A DNA stretch of 63,967 nt, filler included, from Reclinomonas americana ATCC 50394 (GCA_048213135.1; 14 parts of 14 records of this genome joined end to end with filler, not necessarily neighbours in it); one strand, 5' to 3'; positions 17,985 through 19,527 are shown, counted from the first letter of the whole stretch. Translations and numbers: made by a program. Notes: generated by a model from the letters alone, not told the origin.

Positions 17985-18296
17985 TCAGGCAGCGCTAGTG
18001 CCTCCGCACCAGCCACCAAGGCTGGAAATGTTGCCCTGGTTGCGTAAAAAGATGAGAAAAACCGTCTCTGGTTTCACACACACGCAGCGTGCACACAGTC
18101 TTCCCGCAACTACAGAGAGATTCGGGTCATAGGTTCCAGAGGGCGCAAAGGCCGTCAGAGTGCCCGTTGGTTCAATAGTACTGGTGCTGAACGAGAGAGA
18201 GAGTGTGTGTGTGTGTGTGAGAGGCTTATTGATCATGATGTGGTGGGTGGCAGTGGAGAGCAAGGAGAAGAGACGTAACGGGATGACGCTCTCCAT
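17985..18296 (-). CDS. Small WCGGT-motif peptide gene, copy 3 (3 exons; second donor ambiguous)
   Basis: Exon 1 18296-18280, exon 2 from 18186, exon 3 18035-17985: MESVIPTSTIEPTGTLTAFAPSGTYDPNLS...GNISSLGGWCGGTSAA*. Confidence 0.6.
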   Translation of the reverse strand: MESVIPLRLFSLLSTATHHIMINKPLTHTHTLSLSFSTSTIEPTGTLTAFAPSGTYDPNLSVVAGRLCARCVCVKPETVFLIFLRNQGNISSLGGWCGGTSAA

Positions 18297-18571
18297 TCGT
18301 GTGTGGAATGTGTGTGTGCGAGAAGAAGCAATCAGACAGCGCTGCGAGCACTCTTTTCATGCTGCAATATCGGCCCACGGAACACGATCGCAGCGCTTCT
18401 TCTTCATTCACTTGCAACAAACAAGAGGCAACAGCTGTCTTGATGACGCATATCAAACATCTTGTGAAGAACAGGTGAAAAAAAGGAAGAGACAGAACGC
18501 GCGCAGACTGACAATCTGATACGAATCACCCTTGCGTTGCGCGCTCTCGCAGCTGCAGTGCGTGTGATCGA

Positions 18572-18926
18572 TCAGGTGGCGCCAGTGCCCCCACACCATC
18601 CATCAAGGCTGCTAATGTCGCCCTGATTGGGAGCAGATTGATAATAAACATGAGAAAAAACTGTCTGTTTGTTTGTTTGTGGTTTTTGGCACACACACGC
18701 AACAACAAAGCACTGTCGCGGAGGCATACTTTGGTCAACAATGGATCCGAAGGGTGTCATGGCCAGGATGCCCGATGCTTCACTGTAAAGAGAAAAGAAA
18801 GAGAGAGAGAGCAGAGAGCAGAGAGGGAGATAGCGTGCGCGCGAATGATCGTGAGTGTGAGGTGCGCGGAAGGTGAGAGAAGAGAGAGGAGACGTACGTT
18901 AACGCGATGATGTTCTCGAGCTCCAT
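18572..18926 (-). CDS. Small WCGGT-motif peptide gene, copy 2 (50 aa, 3 exons)
   Basis: Exons 18926-18904, 18782-18704 and 18622-18572: MELENIIAEASGILAMTPFGSIVDQSMPPRQCFVGDISSLDGWCGGTGAT*. Confidence 0.68.
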
Positions 18927-19160
18927 TCGTGCGTGGAATGTGTGTGCGAGAAGAAATGATCATAAAAAGGCGAGCACTGTATCGGCCCACACGGAACACA
19001 TTCTTATCTTTCGTTGTGTGCTCTTCGTACGCGTTCAATTGCAAGTTGTGCAGGAGACGCGAAGAAGGAAGAAGACACAGAGACGCAGCAAAAAAAGCAA
19101 GATATTGATGACACAATGACTCACTCACGATGCGCTCTCACAATGTGTGTGTGTATGTGA

Positions 19161-19527
19161 TCAGTAGGCGCCGCCAGAGCTGTCGCCAGTCCCGCCGCAC
19201 CACGCGCCAAGGTTGCCAATGTCGCCCTGATTGGGAACACATACATAAAGACATGAGAAGAAACTGTCTGTGTGTGGTTTTCATATTCACGTGCATGAAC
19301 GTGAGCGCGCGCAACTCCGTAGCACTGCTGCGGGGAGAGTGACTGGCCGAGAGCGGATCCGGTGGAGTTGCCGGCCGCAGCCGCCATGATGCTCGCGATT
19401 TCACTGAGAGAGAGAGAGAGAGAGCGTGCGAGTGATCGTGAGTACAAGGTGTGCGTTTGATGGGGTGGGCGTGCGAGTAGGGGAGAGCAGGGAGAGGTGT
19501 GAGACGCAACGCGACGATGCTGTCCAT
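19161..19527 (-). CDS. Small WCGGT-motif peptide gene, copy 1 (56 aa, 3 exons)
   Basis: Exons 19527-19511, 19403-19316 and 19226-19161: MDSIVAEIASIMAAAAGNSTGSALGQSLSPQQCYGGDIGNLGAWCGGTGDSSGGAY*. Confidence 0.7.

Follow-up and report, generated by a model that had tools for sequence, protein, structure and literature searches.

Positions 17985-19527 of a 63,967 nucleotide stretch of Reclinomonas americana ATCC 50394 DNA (GCA_048213135.1; the whole stretch is called the window below) raise the question of whether three roughly 600 bp minus-strand units found there are genes for tiny spliced peptides, as an earlier note made from the sequence alone had proposed, and, if they are, what such peptides might do. 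The three units, here called genes A, B and C, splice exactly as proposed into open frames of 56, 50 and 47 codons. They are, however, only part of the set: the family has at least six clear members and probably seven (A through G), all on the minus strand within the ~9 kb between 16758 and 25600, so the proposed array of three genes is real but must be extended by D through G. Our best explanation, which we put at roughly 60% on the strength of sequence comparisons, is that the units belong to a multigene family, restricted to its lineage, of very small coding genes in which the last exon is the functional part. That the units form a real, translated gene family seems quite likely from the patterns described below, and, given such a family, the last exon is very likely its functional determinant.

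The models of A, B and C were built from the conserved ATG, donors of the GTT class and, as acceptor, the first CAG to follow each pyrimidine tract. Gene A has exons at 19527-19511, 19403-19316 and 19226-19161 (17, 88 and 66 nucleotides (nt), stop codon included), with GTTGCG at both donors and CAG at both acceptors, and its 56 amino acid (aa) product ends with the WCGGT motif and a tail of nine residues. Gene B, with exons at 18926-18904, 18782-18704 and 18622-18572 (23, 79 and 51 nt), encodes 50 aa and has GTTAAC as its first donor and GTTGCG as its second; a GTACGT lies 6 nt downstream of the GTTAAC, is likewise in frame, and may be the donor that is actually used. Gene C, with exons at 18296-18280, 18186-18111 and 18035-17985 (17, 76 and 51 nt, the stop codon ending at 17985), encodes 47 aa and has GTTACG and GTTGCG as its donors. 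In all three the first intron is in phase 2, the second is in phase 0 and the last exon opens CAG/GGC, just as the earlier note had described. The units align along their entire length at a spacing of 587-630 nt, and the shared start context attributed to them is also present: A, B and C all begin with CACGAATG. These starts are three of the six CACGAATG matches in the window, a count that is not significant by itself (3.3 expected), and the sole plus-strand match, at 49266, lies on the contig preceding that of the GCDH gene. A typical member of the family is ~350 bp long and has two or three short introns (62-121 nt).

Gene D (exons 23092-23076, 22988-22916 and 22853-22805, both donors GTTGCG) was found by a six-frame search for WCGG and is an independent test of these models, as it was unused by the earlier note and yet has donors and phases like those of A-C and an open frame. 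Its last exon runs into the linker of a contig join (see below) and its probable end is at 22685-22704 in the next contig, where the reading resumes and finishes with SSGDY and a stop codon, parallel to the tail of A; this indicates that the neighbouring contigs are in genomic order. Genes E and F were found with a relaxed motif and have four exons each, 23841-23828, 23760-23738, 23657-23617 and 23545-23480 in E (47 aa; donors GTGAGT, GTGAGT and GTTGCG) and 25600-25584, 25516-25494, 25429-25389 and 25321-25256 in F (48 aa), and both products have the C-terminus WMGGTNAFM. Gene G, found by reading downstream of C, is a weaker and more divergent model with the E/F-type layout (exons 17123-17104, 17037-17018, 16949-16903 and 16811-16758; 46 aa). 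Its last exon retains I-G-C-L-x-x-W, with LASS in place of CGGT or MGGT, its second donor is a poor GTCTCT and its second acceptor was picked with the frame known; G is possibly a pseudogene.

In six-frame translation WCGG occurs at only four places in the window, all of them on the minus strand and in members of the family. When a profile of six last exons was run against all six-frame window open reading frames (ORFs) of at least 10 aa, it gave six matches with E <= 4e-8, then G with E = 0.2, and everything else had E >= 1. The confinement of WCGG to the family and the gap in the profile matches argue that the array is more than chance. On the preferred explanation the family grew by tandem and segmental duplication.

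The spliced frame is kept across divergent copies. The coding length ahead of the last exon is 105, 102, 93, 90, 78, 81 and 87 nt in A through G, a multiple of three in seven of seven, although the objective count is six of six without G because the G model was picked knowing the frame. First exons of 17, 23, 17, 17, 14, 17 and 20 nt are all 2 mod 3 and the second exons of A-D (88, 79, 76 and 73 nt) are all 1 mod 3; among the introns, only five of 17 have lengths divisible by three. A 15 nt indel, by which the A tail differs from the B and C tails, is in frame. Selection on the peptide had been suggested on the basis of the first three copies, with a comparison of nonsynonymous (dN) and synonymous (dS) divergence proposed as a check, and both the in-frame indels and the outcome of that comparison support it for these small multi-exon coding units: in the last exon of A-C dN is 0.18-0.30, below dS at 0.46-0.67, and the pooled intron distance is 0.32-0.60. 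In the 13-codon motif block of A-D dN is 0.13-0.32; four pairs have a dS of 0.44-1.15, and for the remaining two dS is saturated. The WCGGT codons of A-C differ synonymously as had been quoted (TGC GGC GGG, TGT GGG GGC and TGC GGA GGC), variation in the Gly-Gly-Thr codons is confined to third positions across six copies, and the eight codons of LxxWCGGT in A-D have 2, 2 and 7 variable sites at codon positions 1, 2 and 3, respectively (hypergeometric estimate P ~0.006). The G+C content at third codon positions (GC3) is 0.67 versus 0.55 and 0.57 at first and second positions (GC1 and GC2) and 0.52 in introns; known window genes have a GC3 of 0.62-0.87. In these codon comparisons, purifying selection centres on the last-exon motif.

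Each of the 17 proposed acceptors is a CAG preceded by a pyrimidine tract, and 12 of the 17 proposed donors are of the GTT class (10 GTTGCG, one GTTAAC and one GTTACG), the others being four GTGAGT or GTGGGT and the GTCTCT of G. GTTGCG is a genuine donor in this organism, since the alignments of two conserved proteins, GCDH and TyrRS, continue across introns that begin with it. The homologue P0012 aligns to the GCDH gene as far as 52327 and resumes at ~52400 with no residues missing, and the plus-strand intron between (52331-52401) reads GTTGCG...CAG; the Pfam profile of TyrRS is followed to profile position 154 at ~59287 and resumes with position 152 at ~59352, and the plus-strand intron there (59285-59346) starts with GTTGCG. 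The hexamer is also over-represented in the window (99 matches versus 60.2 +/- 7.8 expected; none of 100 shuffles reaches 99), which bears out the unusual donor class that had been assigned to A-C. Further donors in conserved window genes are GTACG[TCG], GTGCG, GTGAG, GTGGG, GTTTG and GTGTG. GTTGCG is a regular 5' splice site here, alongside GTACG- and GTGAG-type donors, and its excess may reflect either a second class of donors or the spread of an intron family; a text search of the literature for GTTGCG with splice terms, which sees only parts of the sources, gave nothing on a donor class among the matches listed. Intron 2 of A-C has a strongly conserved CAGACAGTTTYTTCTCATG block and intron 1 has ACTCACGATCA (conserved stretches lie, for example, at 19256-19275 and 18648-18672); both are 25-40 nt ahead of the acceptor and fit branch-site-like CTCAY motifs. 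A start of exon 3 farther upstream, at a conserved CAGACAG, was considered and rejected, as its distances to the CAG (37, 38 and 26 nt) do not preserve the frame.

The predicted products are 46-56 residues long and six of the seven have a calculated isoelectric point of ~4. Lys and Arg are missing from five of them and B and G have one each, D being the product with a basic patch; because five of the seven are without Lys or Arg, trypsin-based proteomics would miss the products. There is one Trp per peptide, except in D with two, and only one Trp, which is invariant, can be aligned in all seven. After this residue comes x-G-G-T in six of the seven (ASS replaces GGT in G), with Leu or Ile at position -3 and Ile or Phe at position -6 before it, and the shared last-exon motif reads hydrophobic-x-x-hydrophobic-x-x-W-x-G-G-T, then a short variable tail. 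The conserved core of two Cys with Trp and Gly described in the earlier note does not hold for the family as a whole: the upstream Cys (in QC) is present only in A and B, the motif Cys of A-D gives way to Met in E and F and to Leu in G, and G also lacks the GGT. Cys counts are 2, 2, 1, 1, 1, 2 and 2 in A through G, at non-homologous positions, and the family has no conserved Cys pair of the kind that marks disulfide-looped defence peptides; since Cys is not conserved, neither a disulfide loop nor Trp-Cys chemistry can be the common denominator of these peptides. The N-termini are Met-Glu or Met-Asp without a basic n-region and, in agreement with the earlier reading of A-C, hydropathy gives no evident signal peptide or membrane segment in any of the seven (the maximum 12-residue value, 2.0, occurs in A only and is interrupted by Glu). 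The peptides are probably disordered.

The family had not been recognised from A-C, and no relative was found in any of the collections searched. The homology queries were contiguous translations only (last exons and two read-through ORFs) rather than spliced peptides, which lowers the sensitivity of these searches. Against 5.8 billion protein clusters there were 6 candidates near the family's own lengths and 1879 at longer lengths, none of which scored in either case; a peptide pattern gave 108 matches in JGI metagenomes, approximately the chance estimate, and none was confirmed; and the ESM Atlas gave no usable match. Pfam and NCBIfam had no matches at E <= 10 (with six last-exon translations as queries for NCBIfam), and Rfam covariance models run on both strands of the whole window had none at the gathering score. 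Three profile matches with E <= 0.001 among 1.84 billion representatives are tandem-repeat proteins of 488-849 aa, and they are not relatives because their score is summed over 6-8 repeats. The only metagenome match to a degenerate DNA pattern for the E/F ending (L001) has no stop codon after the motif and an unrelated context, and is attributed to chance. A mycofactocin-type bacterial precursor was rejected, as the six last-exon translations matched no NCBIfam family at E <= 10, and so was a thioredoxin-like WCG, with which only three residues are in common. A text search for WCGGT, again over partial sources, returned primer-like strings only.

Several observations weigh against reading these units as selected coding genes. 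The introns are about as conserved as the exons (63-84% versus 57-90% identity), the third-position excess is not significant when all 16 last-exon codons are taken (P = 0.13), and dN in the N-terminal part of A-C is 0.49-0.79, at or above intron divergence, a rate that fits unconstrained (relaxed) sequence as well as it fits diversifying selection. The last nine codons and stop of E and F are identical in DNA, while strong divergence affects the 36 nt ahead of the Trp together with the neighbouring 3' half of intron 3, and because this mosaic patch also covers the intron it suggests gene conversion rather than codon-level selection. The sample, moreover, is seven short paralogues from one genome. 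The conservation of the introns and the near-intron rate of the N-terminal half are what a duplicated non-coding unit, or a set of decaying pseudogenes, would also display, its open spliced frames being due to recent duplication or chance, and the poor donor of G and the lack of a homologue in the databases searched point the same way. We nevertheless consider untranslated units unlikely, if deserving of serious thought, given that six divergent copies retain ATG, frame and stop at pairwise synonymous differences (pS) of 0.39-0.84, that exon indels are all in frame and intron indels are not, and that six copies vary only at the third positions of the Gly-Gly-Thr codons. The absence of Rfam matches also speaks against it, as do introns that, at 62-121 nt, are too short for small nucleolar RNAs (snoRNAs) and in which no C/D boxes were seen on reading; an array of spliced leaders or snoRNA hosts was rejected on the same grounds, and the lack of Rfam matches extends to snRNA arrays. 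Coding on the opposite strand was likewise rejected, since the frames there differ between B and C over the motif. If instead the units were exons, alternative ends or untranslated region parts of one longer minus-strand gene, this would account for their common strand and for first exons that, at 14-23 nt, are unusually short for genes standing alone; it is very unlikely, as every unit comes with a conserved ATG context and an in-frame stop of its own and is followed by a conserved stretch before the next unit, and plus-strand genes (the WD40 gene and the CDGSH-like ORF described below) separate E and F from the others.

A different kind of alternative accepts translation and concerns the product. 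The peptides could be precursors of a modified or disulfide-looped peptide (a ribosomally synthesized and post-translationally modified peptide, RiPP, a lipopeptide-type pheromone or a defence peptide) whose Trp/Cys/Gly core is modified. They are small, leaderless products of tandem multi-copy genes with a conserved C-terminal block that contains Trp and Cys in A-D, and multi-copy genes with strongest conservation at the C-terminus also typify a-factor-like pheromones, according to the accessible part of the source (10.1101/2021.09.28.462209). The replacement of the motif Cys in E, F and G and the presence of the second Cys in only two of the seven are hard to reconcile with such a core, and at no C-terminus is Cys followed by three residues and the stop. 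A variable N-terminus with a conserved C-terminus is the reverse of the usual RiPP leader and core, and would fit only a follower-type RiPP recognition sequence. Pfam scans of 102 window ORFs of at least 170 aa and, separately, of 54 ORFs surrounding the array found no protease, oxidase, radical-SAM, methyltransferase or transporter domain near the family (only WD40, CFAP97 and a weak CDGSH match), so the earlier observation that no modifying enzyme is identifiable nearby stands; this is weak evidence against a RiPP, because eukaryotic genes of such pathways need not be linked. With the lack of NCBIfam and Pfam matches at E <= 10 also counting against it, a modified core is a rather doubtful explanation. 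Still less probable, to the point of being hardly credible, is a di-glycine tag or double-glycine processing site, in which a cut after W-x-G-G would be followed by conjugation through the exposed Gly (ubiquitin- or Pup-type) or by leader-type release. The tail after G-G does vary (4-11 residues, in six of the seven), hydrophobic residues lie at -4 (the Trp), -7 and -10 from the putative cut, and the peptides are small, acidic and probably disordered; but A-S replaces G-G in G, the Thr after G-G is invariant in the other six, which is unexpected in a tail that is discarded, the scans found no ligase, C39 peptidase or transporter domain nearby, and Pfam, NCBIfam and the 1.84 billion representatives gave no similarity to any such family.

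If the preferred reading, a lineage-restricted family of micro-protein genes defined by the last exon, is correct, short spliced mRNAs would yield, by translation in the cytosol, peptides that are acidic and probably disordered. One and the same partner, be it a receptor, a processing protease or a docking domain, would recognise the motif of the last exon, and the N-terminal half would be a freely evolving, dispensable spacer or pro-region. Two modes of action can be envisaged, and the choice between them is roughly even: the products may be leaderless precursors that give up a C-terminal peptide for release or export, as in a-factor-type pheromones or plant Peps, or intracellular micro-proteins that use a short linear motif for docking. 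Given the tandem amplification and the fast change of the N-terminal part, we lean slightly toward a role in signalling or recognition. A bolder and distinctly improbable version is that, in a protist that is not a fungus, these are leaderless precursors of a diffusible cell-cell signal, namely a pheromone for mating or density, and that from them a ~13-residue last-exon peptide is excised and exported without the secretory pathway, with the cut possibly at W-x-G-G-T, modification possibly on Trp or Cys, and specificity set by the residues just before Trp that vary among the paralogues; if true, eukaryotic peptide signals would gain a new class, processed by a logic of its own. What is new here is the sequence family and the annotation blind spot that it exposes; a new mechanism has no support yet. 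If translated, these are micro-protein genes likely to escape standard pipelines (first exons of 14-23 nt, mostly GTT-class donors and products under 60 aa), and they add a sequence family whose C-terminal motif is sharply delimited and for which searches of billions of database proteins gave no relative. They would make a compact case for the origin, duplication and diversification of protist orphan peptide genes, and GTTGCG as a regular 5' splice site matters for the annotation of this genome.

The window is eukaryotic DNA of ~56% G+C assembled from draft contigs. Its 13 contig joins each consist of 44 N, TTAATTAATTAA and another 44 N (e.g., 16292-16391, 21231-21330 and 22705-22804), the TTAATTAATTAA between the N runs being an all-frame stop linker that joins the draft contigs, and the contig with the A-C array spans 16392-21230. 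Recognisable genes in the window encode GCDH, TyrRS, a phosphatidylinositol-transfer protein, an arylamine N-acetyltransferase, a band-7 protein, CFAP97 and a seven-bladed WD40 protein; their short introns indicate that the host is an intron-bearing, probably flagellate protist. A search with a GCDH exon gave matches of just 65-78% identity, spread over many lineages and headed by an internally duplicated protein, and thus pointed to no particular lineage. The seven-bladed WD40 gene, with near-identical 126 nt repeat units, is on the plus strand at 23989-25116, with a truncated copy to its left at 23158-23472 that is cut down to the first blade fused to the 3' flank. Genes E and F each lie tail-to-tail with WD40 sequence, the WD40/peptide-gene module having been duplicated at ~1.76-1.78 kb spacing. 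The plus-strand CDGSH-like ORF (22174-22608) has two similar halves and a weak iron-sulfur domain match below the cut-off (E = 2.7e-4), and an intron or a sequencing error may interrupt its frame. A plus-strand gene that faces A divergently matched no Pfam family; a 33 nt tandem repeat of 8-10 copies at 19878-20164 encodes its Ser/Gly/Ala-rich N-terminal stretch. Between it and A, at 19670-19720, is a minus-strand cluster of the palindromic hexamers GTCGAC/GTCGAT, which may be a shared promoter element. A conserved minus-strand GTGTTCCGTGGGC element occurs at 17745-17762, 18373-18390 and 18987-19000; it precedes the B and C start codons by 55-90 nt and recurs downstream of C with no gene directly following, and may serve the repeat unit as a promoter or as a 3'-end element.

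Among known systems, a-factor-like pheromone precursors are described in the accessible part of one report as shorter than 100 aa, without a signal peptide, present in several copies per genome, most conserved in their C-terminal part and hard to find by homology, with a CAAX box directly before the stop codon as the defining feature of the farnesylated precursors (10.1101/2021.09.28.462209). The present family is similar in size (46-56 aa), in copy number (six or seven), in its distribution of change (dN in A-C of 0.18-0.30 in the last exon versus 0.49-0.79 in the N-terminal part) and in having Trp-Cys close to the C-terminus in A-D. It differs in having no CAAX-stop (11 residues follow the Cys in A, and 6 in B and C), in the two or three introns of its genes and in its host, a flagellate-type protist not shown to be fungal, and the resemblance does not amount to membership of that family. 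Plant elicitor-peptide precursors (PROPEP/Pep) and comparable leaderless phytocytokine precursors are also small, lack a signal peptide, form a partly tandem multigene family and carry the active, conserved peptide at the C-terminus, but there is no sequence similarity, and these acidic peptides, with almost no Lys or Arg, have neither the Pep motif nor its basic character. Mushroom MSDIN-type precursors are 35-55 aa long and multi-copy, have introns and include Trp and Cys in some cores; in them a hypervariable core lies between conserved flanking sequences and processing depends on a dedicated prolyl oligopeptidase, whereas here the N-terminus is variable, the C-terminus is conserved, Cys is not, and the Pfam scans saw no such enzyme nearby. 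Double-glycine leaders and di-glycine tags (ubiquitin-like proteins and Pup) resemble the family in the G-G that comes after spaced hydrophobic residues and before a short variable tail; the family differs from them in that only 4-11 residues follow its G-G, its size rules out a ubiquitin fold, G is without G-G and no cognate enzymes were found in the scans.

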